64,000 nucleotides of DNA from Candidatus Omnitrophota bacterium (GTDB taxonomy: Bacteria > Omnitrophota > Gorgyraeia > Gygaellales > Profunditerraquicolaceae): NCBI GenBank assembly GCA_028716245.1, contig JAQUQW010000002.1, positions 421,346-485,345 on the forward strand. The letters run 5' to 3'. Of the stretch, positions 3,580 through 60,645 are shown piece by piece. Numbering within the stretch: position 1 is the first letter of the stretch; each line of letters starts with the position of its first letter. The position numbers were made by a program, and so were the translations under genes. A model generated the notes under the pieces. It did not search any database. It worked only from the letters and a program-made list of their open reading frames with translations, and was not told where the DNA came from.

Positions 3580-4860
3580 ATGCTTAAAAAGACTTTGGCC
3601 CTAATTTTGGTTGGCGTATGCGTATTCAATAGCGGCTTTGCTTATCCCTTGGACCGGCTGTCCTTGGATCCTTTAATCGAAGAAGCCAGAAAAAATAATC
3701 CGGATATTTTAGCCGCCAAGAAACGCTGGGAAGCTTCCAACGCCCGCATACCGCTGTCAAAGTCTTTGGATGACCCGGTATTAAGTTTTACTTTCGAAAA
3801 AACACGCGGCAGCCCTTTTCAATTAAGCAAAACAATGCCTGAAGACAGGATGCTCTCTCTCTCTCAATTTTTGCCCCTCTTTGGCAAATTGTCCCTGAAA
3901 GGGAAAATTTCCGTGGTTGAATCCCGGATGTTTGCCGCTGAATATAAAAATAAGGAATTGGAAGTAATCAATCAAATCAAAAATGCTTATTACGATTTAT
4001 TTATGGACTATAAGGAGATTGGATTGAATCAGGAAAGCCTGGTATTGTTAGAAGGCCTGATCAAAGTTGCCGAAGCAAAATATGCGGTTGGCGGTATGCC
4101 TCAGGAGGAAATTTATAAGCTGCATTCGGAGGCAGCCAGCCTTAAAAACAAAATCAAAAACCTGCAAGAGGGCAAGCTTGCCAAACAAACAATCCTGAAT
4201 ACCTTATTAAACAGGGATCCGCAAGGGCCATTAGGAATTCCGGAATTAAGCCAGGATGTTTCCTTTGCTAAAGACATCCGCGCCTTGTATCAAGCTGTTT
4301 TGCTTAACCAGCCGGAATTGCTTATTTTCGCATCAGCTATAGAAAGAAATAAATACGCCAAGTCTCTGGCAAAACGAAGCTTCTTTCCGGATTTATTGGC
4401 CCAAATTACGGAGCGGGGTTTTACTACGGGAACCATCGGCCCCTGGGATTTAATGTTGGCATTTACAGTGCCGTTATGGTTCTGGACAAAACAACGTTAT
4501 CAAGTAAAAGAAGCGATCGCTAATTTAGAAGAAGCAGAGGAGGCATATAAGGCAATGCAGAATAAGGCGTTTGCCGAAGTTAAGGATTTAGCCGCAAAAA
4601 TAGAGATCGCCAAAAATAAAATAAAACTCTATAAAACCGACCTTATACCGATATTAGAGAATTCTTTTGAAGTGTCTTTGGCTTCGTTTCGTTCCGGAAG
4701 AAGTGATTTTATGGCGCTTATCGATACCCAAAGAATGCTTATCGAGACCAAAATGGACTATTATAAAGCGCTGGTTGAATACAATATGGCTTTGGCCGAC
4801 CTGGAACGCTCCGTAGGCTTGAGTTTTACCGAAAAATCCGAGGTGAAAAATGAGAAATAA
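3580..4860 (+). CDS. cusC: Outer-membrane efflux protein (TolC/CusC/CzcC family)
   Basis: Signal peptide and two OEP repeats, with the typical 'LNQPELL...AKYAVG' helical pattern. It sits immediately upstream of the adaptor and RND genes. Its stop overlaps the next gene's start. Confidence 0.8.
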   Translation: MLKKTLALILVGVCVFNSGFAYPLDRLSLDPLIEEARKNNPDILAAKKRWEASNARIPLSKSLDDPVLSFTFEKTRGSPFQLSKTMPEDRMLSLSQFLPLFGKLSLKGKISVVESRMFAAEYKNKELEVINQIKNAYYDLFMDYKEIGLNQESLVLLEGLIKVAEAKYAVGGMPQEEIYKLHSEAASLKNKIKNLQEGKLAKQTILNTLLNRDPQGPLGIPELSQDVSFAKDIRALYQAVLLNQPELLIFASAIERNKYAKSLAKRSFFPDLLAQITERGFTTGTIGPWDLMLAFTVPLWFWTKQRYQVKEAIANLEEAEEAYKAMQNKAFAEVKDLAAKIEIAKNKIKLYKTDLIPILENSFEVSLASFRSGRSDFMALIDTQRMLIETKMDYYKALVEYNMALADLERSVGLSFTEKSEVKNEK

Positions 4861-6049
4861 AAATGTTTTAGTCATCGCTTTGTTTTCGCTTATTGCCGTA
4901 TTGTTAGTGGTGATTACATTGTTTTTTGTTAGGCATTACCGTATTTTAGGAAAGCAATCCGTAACCGGATCGGTAAGCGCGGAAAAAGATATATATTATT
5001 GCCCGATGCATCCTGCTTATACTTCTGGGAGGCCGGGAGATTGCCCTATCTGTGGAATGAAATTAGTCAAAAAAGAAAAATCCGAAAATCAAAACCATAG
5101 TGCCGCGTCAAAAAAAGAACGCAAGTTGCTTTATTACCGCAATCCCATGAATCCAGAAGTTACTTCGCCTGTACCCATGAAAGATTCAATGGGTATGGAT
5201 TATGTTCCGGTATATGAGGAAGAAGCTTCCGGAAACTCTGGGATTTACATGAGCCCGGAGAAACAGCAGCTTATCGGGGTAACCAAAGAGAAGATCCAAA
5301 AAAGAGAGCTTACCCAGCAAATTCTTACAGTAGGCAAGGTAGCTTATGATCCGGCTCTGTATATAGCGCAAGAGGAATTTCTGCAGGCATTAAAAACGCA
5401 AGGCGAATTGTCAGGTTCTTCTATTGCAGCCCAGGGTAAATCCTTGTTAGAAGCAGCAAAACGAAAACTCTTATTATTGGGGATGGACAAGGTACAGATT
5501 GAAGAGTTAGCTAAACAAAATAAGCCTCAAGGCAACCTTTATTTACCGACAACAGAAAATACAGTCTGGGTGTATATAACCATCTACGAGTATGAAGCAG
5601 GTTTTATTAAAATGGGATTACCGGTTGAGATAGAAGCGATTGCTTTCCCGGGAGAAATATTTAACGGAAAAATTTCCGCGATAACACCGGTGTTGGATTC
5701 AATGACCCGCTCTATACAGGTAAGGGCGGAAGTGGATAATTCTGACAATAAACTTAAGCCCGAAATGTTCGTTAATGTTAAGATTAATGTGGACCTCGGA
5801 GAAGTCCTTGCCGTTCCTGAAACCGCTGTTCTGGATACGGGCGCAAGAAAGATTGTTTACCTTGCCAAAGACGCGGATATGCTGGAGCAGCGCGACGTCA
5901 CCTTGGGCCAGAAAGCTCAAGGCTATTATACGGTACTTAAAGGATTAGTTGAAGGGGACCAGGTAGTTACCAGTGGAAATTTCCTGGTGGATTCTGAGAG
6001 TAAATTAAAAGGCGCCACCCAGGGCGCCACTCATAAACACGGGGAATAA
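4850..6049 (+). CDS. cusB: Heavy-metal efflux RND periplasmic adaptor (CusB/CzcB-like) with N-terminal metal-binding motif
   Basis: Single TM/signal region, then the 'YYCPMHPAYTSGRPGDCPICGMKLV' heavy-metal-binding module typical of CusB-type adaptors, then a membrane-fusion beta-barrel/lipoyl region. Confidence 0.85.
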   Translation: MRNKNVLVIALFSLIAVLLVVITLFFVRHYRILGKQSVTGSVSAEKDIYYCPMHPAYTSGRPGDCPICGMKLVKKEKSENQNHSAASKKERKLLYYRNPMNPEVTSPVPMKDSMGMDYVPVYEEEASGNSGIYMSPEKQQLIGVTKEKIQKRELTQQILTVGKVAYDPALYIAQEEFLQALKTQGELSGSSIAAQGKSLLEAAKRKLLLLGMDKVQIEELAKQNKPQGNLYLPTTENTVWVYITIYEYEAGFIKMGLPVEIEAIAFPGEIFNGKISAITPVLDSMTRSIQVRAEVDNSDNKLKPEMFVNVKINVDLGEVLAVPETAVLDTGARKIVYLAKDADMLEQRDVTLGQKAQGYYTVLKGLVEGDQVVTSGNFLVDSESKLKGATQGATHKHGE

Positions 6050-6061
6050 TGAGAAAATAAG

Positions 6062-9000
6062 ATGATTGAAAAGATAATTGAATTTTCGGCAAAAAATAAA
6101 TATATCATTATCATTTTGGCTATTGTGGCGATGGTGGTGGCGGTTTATTGCATTAAGAATATACCGTTGGACGCGATTCCGGATCTTTCCGACACTCAAG
6201 TCATAATTTATTCCCGTTGGGACCGTTCTCCCGATATCATCGAGGATCAGGTAACCTATCCTATAGTGACCGCAATGCTCGGAGCGCCTAAAGTCAAAGC
6301 CATCCGCGGCTTTTCTGATTTCGGGTTTTCTTACGTGTACATTATTTTTAAAGATGGGACGGATATATATTGGGCGCGCAGCCGTGTGCTTGAATATTTA
6401 AGTAAAATTATACCGAAATTACCGGAAGGCGTGCGCACGGAAATTGGGCCGGACGCAACCGGTGTAGGCTGGGTGTATCAATACGCCCTGGTCGATAAGA
6501 GCGGAAAAAATAACCTGGCGCAGCTGCGCACTTTCCAGGACTGGTATTTGCGTTATTGGCTGCAGAGTGTTCCGGGTGTGGCGGAAGTGGCTTCGCTAGG
6601 CGGATTTCAGAAACAGTATCAGGTCAATATTAATCCGAATGCCTTGTTGGCGTATAAGATTCCTTTGGTGAAAGTTTTGGACGCCATTCGAGACGGTAAT
6701 AATGACATAGGCGGCCGTTTAGTGGAATTTTCCGGGACCGAATATATGGTCAGGGGCAGAGGCTATGCTAAATCCGTAAAAGACATTGAAAATGTTGTTT
6801 TAGGAAATGATCTGTCCGGCACCCCGATTTTAGTTAAGAATGTGGCTCAGGTAGTAATGGGCCCGGAAATACGCCGGGGGGTCGCGGATCTGGATGGGCA
6901 AGGCGATACGGTCGGCGGTATCGTGATAATGCGTTACGGTGAGAACGCGCTCAATGTTATTAATAATGTTAAAGAAAAGATCGAAGAGATTAAACCTTCC
7001 TTACCCAAGGGTGTCCAGATCATTACTACCTATGACCGTTCGGAGCTGATAAAACGTTCCATTGAAACATTAAAGCATCAGTTAATTGAGGAAATGATCA
7101 TCGTCAGTTTTGTTATCCTTCTTTTCTTATGGCATTTCCCTTCGGCAATTATCCCGATTGTCACCATTCCGATAGCGGTACTTTTGTCGTTCATTCCGCT
7201 GTTTGGATTGAAATTAACTTCAAACATTATGTCTCTTTCGGGCATAGCGATTTCTATAGGCGTGCTTGTTGATGGAGCGATTGTTGAAGTGGAAAACGCT
7301 TATAAAAAATTGCAGTTATGGGAAGCAGGGGGCCGTAAAGGCGATTATCATATAGTGAGGCTCAACGCGTTAAAGGAAGTCGGGCCTTCCGTATTTTTCT
7401 CACTTTTGGTTATTGCGGTCGCGTTTTTACCGGTATTTACGCTGGTTGATCAGGAGGGAAGGTTATTTAAACCCCTGGCGTTTAGCAAAAATTTTGCCAT
7501 GGCCATTGCCGCCATATTAGCGATAACACTCGATCCGGCGATGCGGATGTTGTTTACCAGAATGGATTATAAACATTTCCGGCCCAGATGGTTCTCCAAC
7601 ATATTCAATACGATTACAGTAGGCAGGTATTATCCTGAAGAAAAACATCCGGTAAGCAAAATTTTATTTAGATTTTATGAGCCTGTATGTAATTTCGTGC
7701 TTAAACACCGTAAAACCACATTAATCGCTGCGGCTATATTGATTCTTGCGACCATACCCGTTTATTTGCAATTAGGTTCGGAATTTATGCCTCCGCTTAA
7801 TGAGGGGACAATCCTTTATATGCCGACTACTTTACCGGGTATCTCAGTGACTGAAACGCAAAGGCTCCTTCAGACGATGGATAAAATTATAAAAACTGTT
7901 CCTGAAGTTGAGCGGGTGTTTGGAAAGGCCGGCCGCGCCGAAACCTCGACTGATCCGGCGCCATTTTCAATGATGGAAACCACCATTGTGTTAAAACCGG
8001 AAAGCCAGTGGCGTAAGGTACACCGTTGGTATTCCTGGATGCCCGCAGGTTTACAGGGGCCATTGCGGCCGATTTGGCGCGATAGGATTACCTGGGAAGA
8101 TATAATCAATGAGTTAGATAAAAAAATGCAATTTCCCGGGGTCAGTAATGCCTGGACGATGCCGATTAAGGCCAGAATTGATATGTTATCTACGGGAGTG
8201 CGCACGCCCATAGGAATCAAGGTTTATGGGGCGGATTTAAAAGAGATAGAGAAGATCGGCACGCATTTGGAAATGATTATGAAGGGGGTTAAAGGCACAC
8301 GCAGTATTTACGCCGAGCGGGTTACCGGCGGATATTTCGTGGATTTTGACATTAAGCGCGATCAGATCGCCCGCTACGGCTTGAGTATAAAAGAAGTGGA
8401 GATGGTGATCATGTCGGCTATCGGCGGTGAACCGGTTACTACCACCGTAGAAGGCAGAGAAAGGTATACGGTGAATGTGCGCTATGCCCGGGAACTTCGG
8501 GATGACTTGCCGAAACTGCGCAGGGTATTGGTATCCACAATGTCCGGGGCGCAGATTCCGTTGGAAGAGTTAGCCGATATCCATCTGGCATTAGGGCCGG
8601 CAATGATCAGGGATGAAAACGGGATGCTCTCCGGTTACGTGTATGTGGATATCGCCGGGCGGGATGTTGGCAGTTATGTAACTGAGGCAAAAAAGATAGT
8701 GCAAAAAGAACTGCAAATACCTACGGGGTATTCGATTGTCTGGAGCGGGCAGTACGAAAATATGCTCAGAGTCAGGGAAAGATTAAAGCTGGTAATACCC
8801 ATTACTATATTCATAATCTTTGTCTTGCTTTATATGAACACAAAATCGCCGGTAAAAGCGGGCATTGTTATGTTAGCCGTTCCGTTTTCATTGATCGGAG
8901 CGGTATGGTTTCTCTATATTCTAAAATACAATATTTCCATTGCCGTCTGGGTCGGGATGATCGCCTTGATGGGTTTAGACGCGGAAACCGGGGTGTTTAT

Positions 9001-15784: not shown

Positions 15785-15838
15785 CACCCCGCGCTTATAA
15801 GGAATTGCGCGGGTGTGCCCTTGTGGGCAAAGGAGGCA
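15785..15838 (+). promoter_or_regulatory. Conserved double-hairpin leader motif (copy A) immediately upstream of the RBS
   Basis: 'CACCCCGCGC-ttataaggaatt-GCGCGGGTG' forms hairpin 1 and 'TGCCC-ttgt-GGGCA' forms hairpin 2, followed by 'AAGGAGG'. Related copies are at 22805 and 60605. Confidence 0.4.
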
Positions 15839-20644: not shown

Positions 20645-21604
20645 ATGCTGCAGCTGATCGTCGATTGGTTGATGTATTCTGTTTTTAAGCTGGACGCTAA
20701 TTCCAGGATAAATGCGGCTATTAATTTTTTTATTTATGATTCCGTAAAGATAATTTTACTTTTATTCGTGATGATTTCCGCAATAGGATTTTTACGGAGT
20801 TTTTTATCGCAGCAAAAAATCAAAGCCTGGATTACGGGGACTAAAGGATGGGGCAATTTCTTTGCCTCCTTATTCGGCGCGATAACGCCATTTTGCTCCT
20901 GCTCTTCGATCCCGCTGTTTATGAGCTTTTTGGCCGCCGGAATTCCCCTGGGCGTAACTTTTTCTTTCCTGGTCACCTCGCCGCTTATTAATGAGTACCT
21001 GGTTGTATTGATGATCGGCTTTTTCGGTTGGAAGATCACATTGGCGTATGTGATCAGCGGGATGACTATCGGGATTGTCACCGGGATAATTTTAGGCAAA
21101 ATGGAATTGGAAAAGTACCTTGAGAAAGATATTTTTACCGCCAGTCTCGGAGATACCTGTGAAATCAAGACCAAAGGGATAAAACAGAGGATCATCTTTG
21201 GAATGAATGAGGCGGTATGCGTTATAAATAAAATATGGGCTTGGGTCCTTGCAGGCGTGGGCCTGGGCGCGCTTATCCACAATTATGTCCCTCAATCAGC
21301 GGTCCAGGTGATCGTAAATAAAACAGGATTTTTTTCCGTGCCTTTAGCGACTGTTATTGGCGTGCCGATGTATGGCAGTTGCGCGGCCATTGTCCCTATC
21401 GCGGTTGTTTTGTTCCAGAAGGGTTTCCCCTTAGGCACTGCTTTAGCGTTTATGATGGCAGTAGCCGCCTTAAGTTTGCCTGAGGCAATCATGCTTAGAA
21501 GAGCAATGAAGCCAAAACTGATCTTTATCTTTTTTGGCATAACAACGTTAGGCATCATATTTACAGGTTATTTATTTAATTTATTGCAAAAGATATTGAG
21601 CTAA
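20645..21604 (+). CDS. ArsP/DUF318-family permease (putative organoarsenical/metalloid or thiol-reactive compound efflux permease)
   Basis: About 8 TM segments, with '[13 protein letters not shown]' matching the TPFCSCS cysteine motif of the ArsP permease family. Confidence 0.6.
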
Positions 21605-21699: not shown

Positions 21700-22095
21700 A
21701 TGGCGGACTTTAAGGATTTGCTGCAAACCGCGGACTGGAAAACCGAAAAACATGTTCCGGTAATTGAGATGCCTGATGCCGTAAAAAAGGGCGAGTTCTT
21801 CAGGATTACCGTGACGGTTGGTAAAGAAATTACCCATCCGAATAAGGCCGAGCACCACATCCGCTGGATAGCGGTGTATTTTTTACCCGAAGGAGAAAAA
21901 TTCCCTTACCAAATCGCCAAGGCTGAATTTAGCGCCCACGGAGAATCTGCCAAAGGCCCGGATACAAGCACGGTATATACGCATCCGGAAGTAGGATTAA
22001 ATTTTAAGACCGAAAAGCCCGGAACAGTTTATGCCTCCAGTTATTGTAATATACACGGATTATGGCAGAGCGCTAAAGACATGCAAATTAAGTAG
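21700..22095 (+). CDS. Superoxide reductase (neelaredoxin / 1Fe-SOR, desulfoferrodoxin ferrous-iron domain)
   Basis: 'EKHVPVIE' and the 'CNIHGLW' iron-ligand motif, plus 'HHIRWI'. About 130 aa. Confidence 0.85.
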   Translation: MADFKDLLQTADWKTEKHVPVIEMPDAVKKGEFFRITVTVGKEITHPNKAEHHIRWIAVYFLPEGEKFPYQIAKAEFSAHGESAKGPDTSTVYTHPEVGLNFKTEKPGTVYASSYCNIHGLWQSAKDMQIK

Positions 22096-22185
22096 TCATC
22101 CTTAAATGATGGGGGTGGTTATATCATACGCATCATTTCTCATAGTGATGAATCATTTAAAGACCGTCAAGAAGCAGGGGAACTT

Positions 22186-22818
22186 TTGGCTAATGAATTA
22201 AAATATCTGTCCGGAAAAGACGTTGTCGTATTAGGTATCCCGCGGGGAGGTATTATTATAGCCGCCGAAGTTGCCCGCCTGCTGCAGGCTAAATTAGATA
22301 TCGTGCTTTCCCGTAAGATAGGGGCTCCGGGCAATCCTGAACTGGCGATCGGCTCGGTTGGTGAAAATGGAAAACTTTTTCTTAATGATGGCCTGGTTTC
22401 CCGGGTAGGCGCGGATAAGAATTATATCGAATCAGAAAAAATACGGCAGTTAGCCGAGATTAAAAATCGGATCAAAAAGTGCCGGCAGATTAAGCCCAAA
22501 GTTTCTTTAGAAGGGCAAACAGTTATTGTTATTGATGATGGGATAGCAACCGGCGCGACAATGCAAGCAGCGCTTTTAGCTGCCGGCCGCCAAAAGGCGA
22601 AAAAAGTTATTGCCGCGGTTCCGGTGGCTGCTAAAGAATCCATTGTTTTGTTGGCTAATTATGCCGATGAACTGATAGTGTTAAGAGTGCCGGAGTTTTT
22701 GGGATCAATTGGGCAGTTCTACGAAAATTTTGGTCAAACTTCCGAAGGAGAAGTTTTAAGCGCGTTGAGAGAAGCGGCAGAAAAAGAAAAACAATTAGGT
22801 AAGACACCCCGCGCTTAG
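22186..22818 (+). CDS. Phosphoribosyltransferase-family protein (type I PRTase fold)
   Basis: PRPP-binding loop 'VIVIDDGIATGATMQAA'. About 210 aa. Confidence 0.7.
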   Translation: MANELKYLSGKDVVVLGIPRGGIIIAAEVARLLQAKLDIVLSRKIGAPGNPELAIGSVGENGKLFLNDGLVSRVGADKNYIESEKIRQLAEIKNRIKKCRQIKPKVSLEGQTVIVIDDGIATGATMQAALLAAGRQKAKKVIAAVPVAAKESIVLLANYADELIVLRVPEFLGSIGQFYENFGQTSEGEVLSALREAAEKEKQLGKTPRA

Positions 22819-22857
22819 CGGAATTGCGCGGGTGTTGTCTTCGTAGACAAGGAGGCC
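22805..22857 (+). promoter_or_regulatory. Conserved double-hairpin leader motif (copy B)
   Basis: 'CACCCCGCGC-ttagcggaatt-GCGCGGGTG' overlaps the PRTase stop, and 'TTGTCT-tcgt-AGACAA' is followed by 'AAGGAGG'. Hairpin 2 carries compensatory changes relative to copies A and C. Confidence 0.4.
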
Positions 22858-22860
22858 AAG

Positions 22861-22971
22861 ATGTGTAAAACCTGCGGTTGTTCACCCTGCAAGTGCGGAA
22901 AGAAAATAGTAAAAGGGGTATGCGAGGGCTGCGGTAAAAAAAGCGATGAATGCAGTTGTCTTAAGAAATAG
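22861..22971 (+). CDS. Small cysteine-rich peptide (36 aa, metallothionein-like)
   Basis: My own translation gives MCKTCGCSPCKCGKKIVKGVCEGCGKKSDECSCLKK, with 11 Cys in 36 aa. RBS 'aaggagg' lies 7 nt upstream. The ORF is absent from the track because of its size. Confidence 0.5.
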   Translation: MCKTCGCSPCKCGKKIVKGVCEGCGKKSDECSCLKK

Positions 22972-23046: not shown

Positions 23047-23388
23047 ATGAAGCGGAAATTGTGGATTGCGGTTTTTAGCTTATGTTTTGCGGGTGCTTTA
23101 ATATTGACAGCCAATGCCGAACAGCTAACAGCAACCGGCAAAGGAGAGGGGCAAGGTGAGGGTGCTCAATTGAGGCAAGAAATTCAATCATTACATCTAC
23201 AAGCCGAACAGATACGCGCGCAGCTTCAACAGCTCCAAGCTCAGGCGAAGCCGTTAAGGGAACAATTGCGTTCTCTACGTGAAAAAATAAAAGCTGATCG
23301 TGAAAAGATTGAACATTTACGCCAAGAGCATAAAGAGCATCGCCAGGAAATGAAACAAGAGCATAAGGGGCAGCAGCAACAAATATAA
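23047..23388 (+). CDS. Secreted coiled-coil protein with His-rich C-terminus (Spy/CpxP/ZraP-like periplasmic stress protein?)
   Basis: Signal peptide, Q/L-rich heptads and 'HLRQEHKEHRQEMKQEHKG'. The family assignment is tentative. Confidence 0.4.
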   Translation: MKRKLWIAVFSLCFAGALILTANAEQLTATGKGEGQGEGAQLRQEIQSLHLQAEQIRAQLQQLQAQAKPLREQLRSLREKIKADREKIEHLRQEHKEHRQEMKQEHKGQQQQI

Positions 23389-37194: not shown

Positions 37195-37258
37195 AAAAAG
37201 GGACCGTTTCTATTTTTCATTCTCTAAAACTAAGAAAAATAGAAACGGTCCCTTTTTA
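37195..37258 (+). terminator. Rho-independent terminator
   Basis: 'aaaaagggaccgtttctattttt...aaaaatagaaacggtccctttttacc' is a long perfect stem with flanking T runs. Confidence 0.7.
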
Positions 37259-40299: not shown

Positions 40300-40503
40300 G
40301 GTAGATTTCATTAATATTCCAGCATAGATTTTGGTTGTAAAAGGAGGGGTAGAGGGGTAAAATATAGCCCTAGTACAAAGGGGCGTTATATGGAGTTTGG
40401 ATATCAAAATCTAAAGGCAACTCTCTAAAAAATAGGGGGCTGCTTTTTTATTGGCCATCTCTAATTTGTGAAAAATAGAAACAGTATCTAATTTTACCAA
40501 CAG

Positions 40504-57386: not shown

Positions 57387-57540
57387 GCGGGTGGCGAGAC
57401 TTGATTCGAGCGGCATCTTAAAATTCGAGCGGGCACGGTTGCCCGCAATAAATGTTTCGGCAGAGCGAGAATTTTACCGAAGCGCAGCGAGCCACGCTGG
57501 GGCGAGCAAGCGGTGCGGCGAGAACAAGTCTCGGCAGGAT
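57387..57540 (-). repeat. ~155-nt GC-rich intergenic repeat element, copy 1 (inverted relative to copy 2)
   Basis: The reverse complement ('...tcctgccgagacttgttctcgccgcaccgcttgctcgccccagcgtggc...ttattgcgggcaaccgtgcccgctcgaatttt...gtctcgccacccgc') aligns block-for-block with 60360-60519. Confidence 0.7.
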
Positions 57541-60359: not shown

Positions 60360-60519
60360 TCCTGTCAGGCCTTGTCTCTCGCAGCACCGCTCGATTTTCC
60401 CCAGCGTGGAAAATCTTCGCTTCGGCAAAAATTCTCGCTCTGCCGGGAGATTTATTGCGGGCAACCCTGCCCGCTCGAATTTTTGAGATGCTCACTCGAG
60501 TCCAAGGCTTGCCACCCGC
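60360..60519 (+). repeat. ~160-nt GC-rich intergenic repeat element, copy 2
   Basis: 'tcctgtcaggccttgtctctcgcagcaccgctcgattttccccagcgtgga...ttattgcgggcaaccctgcccgctcgaattttt...gccacccgc' pairs with the reverse complement of 57387-57540. It contains an internal hairpin 'gcgggcaaccctgcccgc'. Confidence 0.7.
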
Positions 60520-60604
60520 GTTAAGATTTGAGCCGCTGAATTTTATGTCCCGTCGAGAAAAATCCTTGACGGAAGATTGATTTTATTCTAAGATGTTTAA
60601 ATTA

Positions 60605-60639
60605 GGGAATTGCGCGGGTGTGCCCTTGCGGGCAAGGAG
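60605..60639 (+). promoter_or_regulatory. Conserved leader motif (copy C, hairpin-2 half) upstream of argC
   Basis: 'GGAATTGCGCGGGTGTGCCCTTGCGGGCAAGGAG' matches copies A and B from the loop of hairpin 1 onwards. The 5' arm 'CACCCCGCGC' is absent. Confidence 0.4.
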
Positions 60640-60645
60640 AGTCCA

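Follow-up and report, generated by a model that had tools for sequence, protein, structure and literature searches.

The window, which is the whole stretch of DNA that was analysed, comprises 64,000 nucleotides of a Candidatus Omnitrophota bacterium genome (contig JAQUQW010000002.1). It encodes AcrB, ArsB-like, YHS and HMA-ATPase proteins, further efflux systems, an ArsP permease and a superoxide reductase (SOR). The SOR gene is followed by a phosphoribosyltransferase (PRTase) family gene and by a small cysteine-rich gene, arranged as follows; the YHS protein and the HMA P-type ATPase are encoded farther upstream.

20645 to 21604, forward strand: ArsP_1-family permease (PF03773, E = 2.5e-64), on the same strand as the SOR gene and upstream of it
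21700 to 22095, forward strand: superoxide reductase, 1Fe-SOR of the neelaredoxin type (PF01880, E = 6e-35)
22123 to 22818, forward strand: PRTase-family gene (PF00156, E = 2e-18), directly upstream of the small gene and in the same reading frame
22792 to 22848, forward strand: copy B of a 57-nt repeat element, inserted between the PRTase 3' end and the Shine-Dalgarno (SD) sequence of the small gene
22849 to 22855, forward strand: SD sequence aAGGAGG, 5 nt (ccaag, 22856-22860) before the ATG
22861 to 22971, forward strand: small gene of 36 codons plus TAG, recognised by conservation in close loci and by family homologues
23047 to 23388, forward strand: gene for a 113-aa protein with a signal-peptide-like start followed by a Q/K/E-rich coiled coil, with its own SD

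The small gene is read from an ATG at 22861 to a TAG at 22969-22971, and its translation (MCKTCGCSPCKCGKKIVKGVCEGCGKKSDECSCLKK) matches exactly the 36-residue peptide of the original prediction. The product has a mass of 3.8 kDa and a predicted pI of about 9; it contains nine lysines, nine cysteines (positions 2, 5, 7, 10, 12, 21, 24, 31 and 33) and neither histidine nor aromatic residues. Eleven cysteines had been claimed; the count is nine. They make up 9 of the 36 residues and form the motifs C-x2-C-x-C-x2-C-x-C, C-x2-C and C-x-C, which bear out the C-x-C/C-x-x-C character described earlier. The proposed aaggagg ribosome-binding site is present, with a spacing of 5 nt rather than the 7 nt first given. 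An exact-sequence lookup of the peptide found no record of it as a called gene; the proposal that the gene has its own ribosome-binding site and was missed by ORF tracks due to its short length is supported.

Comparison with close relatives indicates that 22861-22971 is a genuine gene, translated independently from its own ribosome-binding site. It is intact in six closely related Omnitrophota loci (L001, L002, L003, L006, L007 and L008), and all nine cysteines are invariant across them. Pairwise dN/dS among the close loci is 0.02-0.12 in 20 of 21 pairs, variable sites are distributed 6/4/18 over the three codon positions, and the remaining two forward frames are interrupted by stop codons. 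Absence of a conserved reading frame in relatives had been set beforehand as a finding that would speak against a gene; the frame is kept, with strong synonymous bias. The distance from AGGAGG to ATG is identical in all six relatives regardless of the upstream sequence, so that AGGAGG, 5 nt and ATG are retained across three upstream configurations (in-frame fusion, overlapping stop and repeat insertion). Two sister loci, L004 and L005, lack the peptide and have a terminator hairpin where it would be.

Homologues extend far beyond this clade. An HMMER search of 1.84 billion representative proteins returned ten matches, all of 36-50 aa and with the same cysteine pattern; in this index-free search the window peptide matches independent family members at E = 2e-8 to 5e-4. 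A set of 5.8 billion proteins yielded 162 clusters; among the best 120 of these, every source name is 'hypothetical protein' and there are no Pfam domains. Confirmed loci number 260 among GTDB species genomes and 226 in metagenomes, while a search of viral contigs found no homologues. A word-indexed search with the peptide padded to 42 aa gave no match; the family was reached only by index-free HMMER search and through PRTase homologues. Hosts include Omnitrophota, Planctomycetota, Bathyarchaeota, Methanoperedens, Clostridia and CPR/DPANN lineages, and the carriers listed belong mainly to uncultured, typically anaerobic lineages of Bacteria and Archaea. A literature search by sequence strings and topical terms found no description of the family. 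These matches indicate that the peptide is a member of a widespread family of anaerobes, bacterial and archaeal, which is named in no database.

About 193 distinct sequences were gathered. They share the signature M-C-x2-C-G-C-x-P-C-x(1-2)-C-G-x2-I-x3-C-x2-C-x6-C-x-C, carried by stand-alone ORFs roughly 33-50 codons long. The window peptide agrees with it at every position and belongs to subtype I (C-K-C-G); in subtype II, the first knuckle is C-x2-C-G. From archaea to bacteria, the nine cysteines and G6, P9, G13, I16, V20 and G23 are invariant or nearly so. The peptide is encoded by a stand-alone ORF in all 85 family loci examined, mostly with only a few open codons upstream of the methionine; in most of these loci the signature motif opens the reading frame, and 61 of them have an SD-like motif no more than 12 nt from the ATG. 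Outside the conserved positions the family is variable. Core net charges spread between -7 and +7, and the C-terminal tails include polybasic as well as poly-Asp/Glu sequences; since charge and tails vary in this way, the thiolate/metal core appears to be the conserved feature, with no other conserved surface. Most members are basic (total charge most commonly +6, median about +4). F, Y, W or H occurs in 53 of 193 cores, for example in the common K-P-Y-D of subtype I; the window peptide has none of these residues.

The PRTase gene has its first canonical start at TTG 22186. The N-terminus of its homologues, which are 85-93% identical, implies that translation begins at a non-canonical ATC or ATA codon near 22123, preceded by the SD GGGGGTGG at 22111-22118. 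A frameshift in the PRTase 5' region was rejected, as the alignment contains no indel; a canonical start is simply missing at the homologous position. In two relatives (P0001 and P0012, from independent assemblies) the PRTase and the peptide are fused in frame through an A7/A8 run; here the 57-nt repeat separates them. The peptide is a separate ORF in four of six relatives, by way of an A8 run or the repeat.

The limits of the copy B insert were set by comparison with L001, L002, L003 and L007, in which it is absent. The insert supplies the PRTase stop codon (TAG, 22816-22818). It has two hairpins, in which 22803-22814 pairs with 22826-22836 and TTGTCT (22835-22840) with AGACAA (22845-22850); an alternative pairing, GUCUUC/GGAGGC, is predicted to sequester the SD. 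The earlier suggestion that the leader carries copy B of a conserved hairpin motif is confirmed: GGAATTGCGCGGGTG with its hairpin occurs three times in the window, against 0.11 expected by chance. The other two copies are:

15786 to 15837, forward strand: copy A, between the stop of a TolC-like gene and the SD/ATG (15843) of an HlyD-family gene
60603 to 60642, forward strand: copy C, of which just the right half is present, immediately ahead of the ATG (60637) of an argC-like gene

Rfam gave no match to the window or the leader region. A separate 56-nt inverted repeat, at 57420 and 60428, was rejected as an insertion sequence; it flanks asd-like, truA-like, rplM-like and rpsI-like genes. At this locus, an A7/A8 run and a mobile hairpin-plus-SD repeat switch a gene pair between fused, overlapping and separated states.

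The peptide could be no gene of its own but the cysteine-rich C-terminal tail of the PRTase, cut off by the repeat insertion and now a decaying remnant. The peptide is in the PRTase frame, 14 codons past its TAG, the stop codon that parts the two belongs to the inserted repeat, and contiguous fusions exist in P0001 and P0012. This origin is very improbable and is largely refuted by the stand-alone state of the family, by the SD and ATG, which are kept even within the fused versions, and by purifying selection that is equally strong where the peptide stands separate from the PRTase. The separate ORFs in four of six relatives also argue against it, as do more distant PRTase homologues, which have no cysteine tail. 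PRTase linkage outside the close clade was looked for and not found.

In this genome, the peptide gene appears to end a stress operon comprising ArsP permease, SOR and PRTase, with which it would be co-transcribed. SOR is located two genes upstream in all seven peptide-carrying close loci, and the close relatives add zf_CopZ and Cu-type ATPases. The original prediction placed the gene in a metal/oxidative-stress neighbourhood; the ArsP_1 permease and the superoxide reductase are both confirmed, and this context holds for the present lineage. The gene for the 113-aa protein begins 75 nt past the peptide stop. The protein shows weak, below-threshold resemblance to Metal_resist/ZraP (PF13801, E = 0.013; ZraP NF008584, E = 0.008), and homologues are present in L006, L007 and L008 and absent from L001-L003.

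A small, cysteine-rich ORF located upstream of another gene with a 75-nt gap could also be a RiPP precursor of the SCIFF/ranthipeptide type, a regulatory cysteine-rich leader peptide (uORF) or a chance ORF. These readings are barely credible. NCBIfam, with its SCIFF model, gives no match to the peptide, and no radical-SAM or other maturase was found nearby, among recurrent neighbour clusters or among the top neighbour Pfam families. A conserved leader function is excluded by the gene that follows, which varies from lineage to lineage and in 33 of 76 loci is encoded on the opposite strand. A chance ORF is excluded by amino-acid conservation across phyla and by dN/dS of about 0.1 or lower in 20 of 21 pairs. 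Within the reach of sequence analysis, conservation and context refute all three.

The original prediction described the peptide as typical of bacterial metallothioneins. This stands with regard to low mass, high cysteine content and C-x-C/C-x-x-C motifs, features of the operational definition that the peptide shows. Another part of that definition, the lack of aromatic residues and histidine, is seen in the window peptide, but such residues are present in 53 of the 193 family cores. As regards membership of a known family the description does not stand, since neither Pfam nor NCBIfam gives a significant match. Pfam has no match to the peptide at E <= 1, and across 90 family members there are only sub-threshold matches to metallothionein and zinc-ribbon families. 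The best metallothionein match is Metallothio_Euk (PF12749), with a lowest E-value of 0.02; the window peptide scores about 9 bits where the cut-off is 22 bits; sub-threshold PF12749 matches occur in 29 of the 90 members. The bacterial metallothionein family PF02069 is absent from the families matched by any of the 90 at E <= 10. Sequence comparison does not support membership of a known metallothionein family, and the family differs from typical metallothioneins in its invariant cysteine spacing and in the conserved G6, P9, G13, I16, V20 and G23. As a description of function, metallothionein-like is plausible.

Three metallothioneins are instructive for comparison. SmtA/BmtA (PF02069) of cyanobacteria and pseudomonads are proteins of about 55 aa in which 9 Cys and 2 His hold a Zn4 cluster in a zinc-finger-like fold. 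Like them, the peptide is small and probably cytoplasmic, has nine cysteines in C-x-C/C-x-x-C motifs on a predicted zinc-finger-like scaffold, and has a genomic context that involves metal stress. Unlike them, it is 20 residues shorter, has nine cysteines and no histidine in place of the Cys9His2 ligand set, has a different cysteine spacing and no detectable sequence similarity, and comes from a family hosted mostly by uncultured, typically anaerobic lineages. The beta-domain of mammalian metallothionein has 9 Cys in about 30 residues and binds M(II)3Cys9 or Cu(I)6. The window peptide resembles it in having nine cysteines (about 25% Cys), many lysines and no aromatics or histidine; in contrast to this domain and to Metallothio_Euk, the non-cysteine residues of the family are conserved and a beta-hairpin is confidently predicted. 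MymT is a Cu(I)-binding metallothionein of Mycobacterium tuberculosis, encoded by a small ORF of 53 aa that had no annotation at the time of its discovery. Our peptide is likewise an overlooked small cysteine-rich bacterial ORF near copper-handling genes (HMA ATPase and YHS, with CopZ in relatives). Whereas MymT is confined to mycobacteria, the nine-cysteine family spans many phyla and both prokaryotic domains; we know of no motif shared by the two.

AlphaFold2 models reach a pLDDT of 84.1 (window peptide) and 87.4 (a member of subtype II), and each consists of a helical turn, a beta-hairpin and a second helical turn. The strands, at 16-17 and 20-21, lie between the cysteine knuckles, where pLDDT is about 90. 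The knuckle pattern is C10-x-C12-G and C21-x2-C24-G, and two cysteine knuckles at the ends of a beta-hairpin are the defining feature of zinc ribbons and rubredoxin knuckle pairs; the confidently predicted fold thus resembles this arrangement. Sub-threshold profile and Foldseek resemblances all lead to zinc ribbons or rubredoxin-type knuckles, namely those of eL37, bL32, Nop10, the zinc finger of Nup153 and rubrerythrin, in its rubredoxin domain. A PDB sequence/profile search gave no significant match (best E = 0.016-0.6), the best Zn_Ribbon_1 match among the 90 members (0.073) is not significant, and Foldseek gave no significant match (E >= 4.9), the peptide being too short for Foldseek statistics. 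The family probably binds metals.

Zinc-ribbon modules (bL32, eL37, Nop10, RanBP2-type fingers, Zn_Ribbon_1) provide the best resemblances in sequence and fold, none of them significant: in these too, two cysteine knuckles (CxxCG) flank a two-stranded beta-hairpin, as predicted for the peptide. The peptide might accordingly be a structural zinc-ribbon microprotein that binds a macromolecular partner, such as the PRTase, the ribosome, RNA polymerase or a nucleic acid, and in which zinc does no more than stabilise the fold. The fold-like conservation of Gly, Pro, Ile and Val, the confident models, the weak similarity to zinc ribbons seen in ribosomal proteins and in Nop10, the basic character of most members and the occurrence of the family in reduced CPR and DPANN genomes are consistent with such a role, and the C-terminal fusion to PRTase in P0001 and P0012 is a Rosetta-stone hint of physical association. 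We nevertheless regard this role as unlikely. The PRTase adjoins the peptide only in a genus-level clade. Non-cysteine surface residues and net charge cover everything between strongly basic and strongly acidic, and some members end in poly-D/E tails; this variability argues against a conserved nucleic-acid or protein interface. The first knuckle of the window subtype is C-x-C, unlike that of simple zinc ribbons. Nine invariant cysteines also exceed the need of a single structural C4 site. In the models, the five cysteines outside the two knuckles come from both termini, and these additional invariant cysteines imply a predicted second metal site that simple ribbons do not have.

Oxygen-defence genes recur near family members, though neighbours are not conserved overall. 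No family-wide gene partner emerged when neighbours were clustered and 150 flanking genes were assigned to Pfam families (144 families, with no metal transporters among the top families); synteny is lineage-specific only. In L021, the peptide gene lies between rubrerythrin (Rbr) and desulfoferrodoxin (Dfx) genes, with gaps of 23 and 17 nt. Dfx, SOR or Rbr is encoded within 5 kb in seven further loci (L014, L016, L043, L054, L109, L152 and L157), an Fe/Mn superoxide dismutase (SOD) directly downstream in L044 and L067, and thioredoxin-like and rubredoxin-like neighbours in L009. A recognisable oxygen-defence gene is present in only 16 of 149 non-close loci. By a rough Poisson estimate that assumes two genes per 3 Mb, the association is significant for SOR/Dfx (P ~0.008) and not for Rbr or SOD.

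This context raises a further alternative, in which the peptide is an electron carrier similar to a mini-rubredoxin or desulforedoxin, with Fe(Cys)4 bound by the two central knuckles or a small Fe-S cluster held by the nine cysteines, passing electrons to SOR/desulfoferrodoxin and rubrerythrin. In the classical Desulfovibrio rbo-rub operon, rubredoxin occupies a position like that of the peptide in L021. Dfx, SOR or Rbr genes recur near members in several phyla, and the fixed position of SOR in the close loci also fits an electron carrier. The CxxCG knuckles of subtype II are of the rubredoxin type, and the non-significant Foldseek matches include rubredoxin as well as the rubredoxin domain found in rubrerythrin. 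Desulforedoxin likewise is a 36-residue Fe(Cys)4 protein, so that knuckle chemistry, size, hosts from typically anaerobic lineages and occasional operon partners are all shared. This alternative is nonetheless rather doubtful. Rubredoxin, with C-x2-C-G and C-P-x-C-G on either side of a long spacer and an aromatic core, and desulforedoxin, with C-x2-C and C-C, have four cysteines, not nine; knuckle spacing in the peptide is 8 residues compared with about 28, the peptide has no aromatic core, the first knuckle of subtype I is C-x-C, and neither the peptide nor the 90 members match rubredoxin (PF00301) or desulforedoxin (PF06397; Desulfoferrod_N) in Pfam. A single Fe site would leave five invariant cysteines unexplained, surface charge varies among members although a docking surface is usually retained in electron carriers, and most loci have no oxygen-defence neighbour.

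The reading that we favour, with a moderate degree of confidence, is that the peptide is a small thiolate/metal centre that acts in metal/oxygen-stress defence and is metallothionein-like by function, not by ancestry. It would be a cytoplasmic microprotein that works through a compact metal centre of cysteine thiolates. C10 and C12 (C-K-C-G) with C21 and C24 (C-E-G-C-G), which flank the short hairpin from I16 to V20, would form a putative tetrathiolate site of the zinc-ribbon or rubredoxin kind; the N-terminal C2-x2-C5-x-C7 and the C-terminal C31-x-C33 would close a second putative site. The metal load may be two ions, or possibly three in an M3S9 cluster, and the metal could be Zn, Fe or Cu or form part of an Fe-S cluster. 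The peptide would be expressed from the 3' end of the stress operon, with the ArsP permease, SOR, PRTase and the presumably secreted coiled-coil protein, downstream of a copper-type P-ATPase and efflux systems, and most probably would defend against metal and oxygen stress, either as a small thiolate/metal buffer or as a metal centre with redox activity. Several observations run counter to this reading: fixed spacing and conservation of Gly, Pro, Ile and Val fit a structural zinc module better than a metallothionein that sequesters metals, immediate neighbours are heterogeneous across the family and seldom include oxygen-defence genes, and the peptide is dispensable in the sister loci L004 and L005.

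Small proteins are systematically under-annotated, and homologues of this peptide carry the source name 'hypothetical protein' among the clusters listed. Only a small number of metallothioneins are known from bacteria, and to our knowledge there is no description of one from any lineage with the nine-cysteine family. A single ORF here leads to a defined family with a sharp signature, a wide distribution, a confident fold prediction and a testable link to metal and oxygen stress, and the 36-residue nine-thiolate domain is within reach of peptide synthesis. More speculatively, the family may represent an ancient minimal metal-thiolate class of anaerobes (Bacteria, Archaea and CPR/DPANN), a 'mini-metallothionein/mini-rubredoxin' that acts in oxygen defence with SOR, desulfoferrodoxin and rubrerythrin; we consider this possible but rather improbable. 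Its nine-cysteine centre would be an M3S9 cluster, a two-site cluster or an Fe/Fe-S centre, with a task as redox buffer, metal buffer or electron donor. If so, the oxidative-stress system of anaerobes would gain a new component, one that has escaped notice owing to its length of only about 36 residues.

The peptide ORF and its ribosome-binding site were placed as follows in the window:

22861-22971, + strand, peptide ORF, with ATG at 22861 and TAG at 22969-22971
22850-22855, + strand, AGGAGG of the Shine-Dalgarno (SD) sequence, followed by the 5-nt spacer ccaag before the ATG

The ORF lies exactly where the original prediction put it. The ribosome-binding site is also present as AGGAGG, with a spacer of 5 nt rather than the 7 nt first reported. 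The translation is MCKTCGCSPCKCGKKIVKGVCEGCGKKSDECSCLKK; it contains nine cysteines (positions 2, 5, 7, 10, 12, 21, 24, 31 and 33), not the eleven first claimed, along with nine lysines and no arginine, aromatic residue or histidine. The peptide has a mass of 3.8 kDa and a predicted pI of ~9. Its exact sequence is absent, as a called gene, from the public gene-position index.

The nearest homologues of the phosphoribosyltransferase-family (PRTase) gene directly upstream are found in Omnitrophota (85-93% identity) and were used to reach eight related loci, L001 to L008. Six of these (L001, L002, L003, L006, L007 and L008) contain the same 36-codon frame at 86-97% identity, with all nine cysteines unchanged. 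Pairwise dN/dS is 0.02-0.12 except in the near-identical pair L001/L003, where the value of 0.44 rests on three substitutions. The 28 variable sites are distributed 6/4/18 over codon positions 1/2/3, and stops interrupt both other forward frames. Frame conservation with synonymous bias, originally proposed as a check on the peptide, is thus evident; the ORF is almost certainly a real gene.

In the window, the peptide is in the PRTase frame and begins 14 codons past the PRTase TAG. The sequence just ahead of the SD differs between loci:

L001 ~8645-8669 and L002 ~5627-5651, A7 run just 5' of the peptide SD
L003 ~8498-8523 and L007 ~1745-1770, A8 run just 5' of the peptide SD
Window ~22781-22791, equivalent of the A run, interrupted by a repeat

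Where an A7 run precedes AAGGAGG (L001, L002), the PRTase and a Cys-rich tail form a single ORF (fusion proteins P0001 and P0012). The A8 run in L003 and L007 shifts the PRTase frame, which ends ...KKGGQDV with a TAA overlapping peptide codons 2-3. The A-rich stretch is separated from the SD in the window, L006 and L008 by a 57-nt repeat (22792-22848 in the window), which supplies the PRTase stop. All three configurations keep AGGAGG, the 5-nt spacer and the ATG. Taken with the evidence from the family, they show the peptide to be an independent gene, fused now and then; on the same grounds, the reading of the peptide as a severed PRTase domain was rejected. The A7 and A8 states are each backed by two independent assemblies; toggling of the PRTase between them could be due to assembly error, transcriptional slippage or polymorphism among strains.

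Sister loci L004 and L005 contain no peptide and have a terminator-like hairpin at the same place after the PRTase. The hairpin (L004 ~8545-8620) is a close variant of a perfect 24-nt palindromic terminator-like hairpin, AAAAAGGGACCGTTTCTATTTTTC plus its complement, found at 37195-37257 and 40469-40494 of the window. L003 and L004 belong to the same MAG (GCA_041643255.1), which contains two paralogous Cu-ATPase...SOR-PRTase-TetR blocks (SOR, superoxide reductase), one with the Cys peptide and the other with the hairpin in its position; the pair of blocks is either a genuine duplication or the product of a mixed-strain bin.

The immediate neighbours of the peptide in the window are:

Directly upstream, PRTase-family gene (PF00156, E = 2e-18)
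Before the PRTase, 1Fe superoxide reductase (PF01880)
Before the PRTase, ArsP_1 permease (PF03773)
23047-23388, 113-aa protein with the look of a signal peptide, then a Q/K/E-rich coiled coil

Genes for AcrB, an ArsB/CitMHS-type transporter, a YHS-domain protein and an HMA P-type ATPase, as well as TolC, HlyD and ABC-2 efflux genes, occur farther upstream in the same orientation, and the metal/oxidative-stress neighbourhood originally described holds for the window genome. SOR-PRTase-peptide order is found in 7/7 loci of the window's own clade, and Cu-type ATPase, YHS and zf_CopZ genes adjoin in close relatives. The SOR-to-peptide interval contains no convincing promoter or terminator, which is consistent, at sequence level, with co-transcription. 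The 113-aa protein has weak sub-threshold similarity to ZraP (NF008584, E = 0.008) and Metal_resist (PF13801, E = 0.013); in L006, L007 and L008 a homologue comes after the peptide, and there are none in L001-L003.

In the 5' region of the PRTase (22096-22190), no ATG, GTG or TTG stands at the point where its homologues begin. ATC (22123) and ATA come after a conserved SD-like GGGGGTGG (22111-22118), and this ATC has a TAG immediately before it in L003 and L006; this points to a non-canonical PRTase start codon (ATC, ATA or ATT). The true PRTase gene is probably 22123-22818, not 22186-22818.

The repeat ahead of the peptide has further copies:

15786-15837, copy A, before the HlyD gene
22792-22848, copy B, before the peptide
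60603-60642, copy C, before an argC-like gene
L006 ~4030-4075, ~8513-8582 and ~8745-8802; L007 ~2590-2650; L008 ~1695-1764, copies outside the window

The original prediction of a leader hairpin motif at the peptide is borne out, copy B being one of three matches in the window against 0.11 expected by chance. The five copies elsewhere (three in L006, one each in L007 and L008) are all directly ahead of a start codon. The repeat always lies immediately 5' of an SD or start codon, and the genes behind it are unrelated (HlyD, ABC-2 permease, Cys peptide, coiled-coil protein, argC-like); the element is not a peptide-specific leader. The first part of the repeat is a GC-rich hairpin, CACCCCGCGC ... 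GCGCGGGTG; the second is a small hairpin in two mutually compensatory versions, TGCCC-YYGY-GGGCA and TTGTCT-YCGT-AGAYAA. Rfam gave no match to the element. It is regarded as a REP-like intergenic hairpin and, by analogy with REP function, possibly acts as an mRNA stabiliser or decoupler. Copy B folds at -24.2 kcal/mol (z = -2.0, RNAfold), and GUCUUC is paired with GGAGGC of the SD in its minimum-free-energy structure, so that the modelled fold, if it forms, could damp translation of the peptide or make it conditional. SD sequestration is not a feature of copy A.

A 56-nt inverted repeat pair (57420-57475 and 60428-60483, 93% complementary) flanks ~3 kb of housekeeping-like genes in the window (asd-like, truA-like, rplM-like and rpsI-like, from translations judged by eye). 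The pair is probably one more intergenic hairpin repeat and not a mobile element.

The peptide belongs to a widespread family. Searching 1.84 billion representative proteins with index-free HMMER gave ten matches (E 2e-8 to 5e-4), all of 36-50 aa and with one common pattern. In one genome per GTDB species, a combined pattern and tblastn scan gave 272 matches and confirmed 260 of them; 226 further loci were confirmed in metagenomes, and no member was found in the viral contigs scanned. A profile search of a 5.8-billion-protein set gave 162 clusters; among the best 120 of these, each source name given is 'hypothetical protein', with no Pfam domain in any. Bacterial carriers include Omnitrophota (one of them Candidatus Velamenicoccus archaeovorus LiM, a complete genome), Nitrospirota, Thermodesulfobacteriota, Clostridia, Aerophobetes, Dehalococcoidales, Paceibacterota and many Planctomycetota (Pirellulales, Phycisphaerae, Sedimentisphaerales, Brocadiia/Kuenenia); archaeal hosts include Bathyarchaeota, Methanoperedens and Micrarchaeota. 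In most of the 85 family loci examined the motif starts at the Met of a short stand-alone ORF, and 61 of the 85 have an SD-like motif within 12 nt of the ATG.

The signature over 193 distinct sequences is M-C-x2-C-G-C-x-P-C-x(1,2)-C-G-x2-I-x3-C-x2-C-x6-C-x-C. The first knuckle is C-K-C-G in subtype I (n=63, including the window peptide) and C-x-x-C-G in subtype II (n=130). The nine cysteines, G6, P9, G13, I16, V20 and G23 are invariant or nearly so in these sequences, and other positions swap freely among Lys, Glu and Asp. Net charge ranges from -7 to +7 in the core and from -40 to +9 in total; C-terminal tails, mostly short poly-Lys, range from KKK to 40-50 residues of poly-Asp/Glu (P0178, P0204, P0241). 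Since only the thiolate core and scaffold residues are conserved, the simplest view is that the conserved function would reside in the metal/thiolate centre and not in a docking surface. A serious alternative is a zinc ribbon with a purely structural role that binds a partner, and the PRTase fusion hints at such a partner. Across ~78 clustered loci, with up to four genes per side, no partner is conserved family-wide and synteny is only lineage-specific; 150 immediate neighbours are spread over 144 Pfam families, and ~40% of flanking genes are encoded on the other strand.

The peptide matched nothing in Pfam or NCBIfam. When 90 members were scanned one by one, only sub-threshold matches were obtained: Metallothio_Euk in 29 (best E = 0.02), otherwise assorted zinc fingers and zinc ribbons. 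The family profile gave no significant match among all PDB sequences (best E = 0.016-0.6); these alignments, to zinc ribbons of eL37, bL32 and Nop10 and a 68-aa 'conserved protein', all span C10...C24. AlphaFold2 models from 90-sequence alignments (pLDDT 84.1 and 87.4 for the window peptide and a subtype II member, respectively) are alike: residues 2-5 form a helical turn, a beta-hairpin lies between the central knuckles, and another helical turn comes ahead of the C-terminal C-x-C. Foldseek gave no significant match; several of the non-significant subtype II matches, the top one among them, are to RanBP2-type zinc fingers, RNA-polymerase zinc ribbons, rubrerythrin's rubredoxin domain and rubredoxin itself.

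Cys-mediated metal binding is likely. C10, C12, C21 and C24 would form a zinc-ribbon or rubredoxin-like tetrathiolate site, and N-terminal C2, C5 and C7 would close a second site with C31 and C33. With two such sites, we infer that the peptide would hold two metals or a three-metal M3S9 cluster, the arrangement of the metallothionein beta-domain.

In its workings the peptide is a putative Cys-rich metal-binding mini-protein. It shares its nine-Cys count with SmtA and the metallothionein beta-domain, its knuckle geometry with zinc ribbons and rubredoxins, and its size and the ecology of its hosts with desulforedoxin; in membership tests it fails for every one of them. The family has no Pfam or NCBIfam name and no solved structure, and a literature search found no paper on it. 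It is classed as a new family inside the broad class of small thiolate-metal proteins. The original metallothionein-like label is favoured as a description of function; membership of a known metallothionein family is not supported, the Metallothio_Euk matches being sub-threshold.

Oxygen-defence genes are found near 16 of 149 non-close loci. In L021 the order is rubrerythrin-peptide-desulfoferrodoxin (gaps of 23 and 17 nt); desulfoferrodoxin (Dfx), SOR and/or rubrerythrin (Rbr) are within 5 kb in L014, L109 and L157, L016 and L152, L043, and L054. An Fe/Mn SOD is directly downstream in L044 and L067, and the L009 neighbours are thioredoxin-like and rubredoxin-like. A rough Poisson estimate (1.16 Mb of flanks, 2 SOR/Dfx genes per 3 Mb assumed) gives P ~0.008 for SOR/Dfx and no significance for Rbr or SOD; the association of the family with oxygen defence is therefore only suggestive. 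A mini-rubredoxin donating electrons to SOR and Rbr is a serious alternative, as the peptide's operon position in L021 is that held by rubredoxin in Desulfovibrio.

In deltaproteobacterial L079 (6130-6801), a dienelactone-hydrolase-family gene lies directly downstream of a family member (16-nt gap). This domain frequently occurs fused to COG1926-type PRTases or beside them, and the neighbour may echo the PRTase link of the window's clade.

The adjacency of copper-ATPase, YHS and zf_CopZ genes in close relatives favours a metal/redox role in stress. The best single reading, with about an even chance or a little less, is a stress-linked metal or redox buffer: the peptide would act as a thiolate/metal buffer or a redox-active metal centre in metal and oxygen stress.
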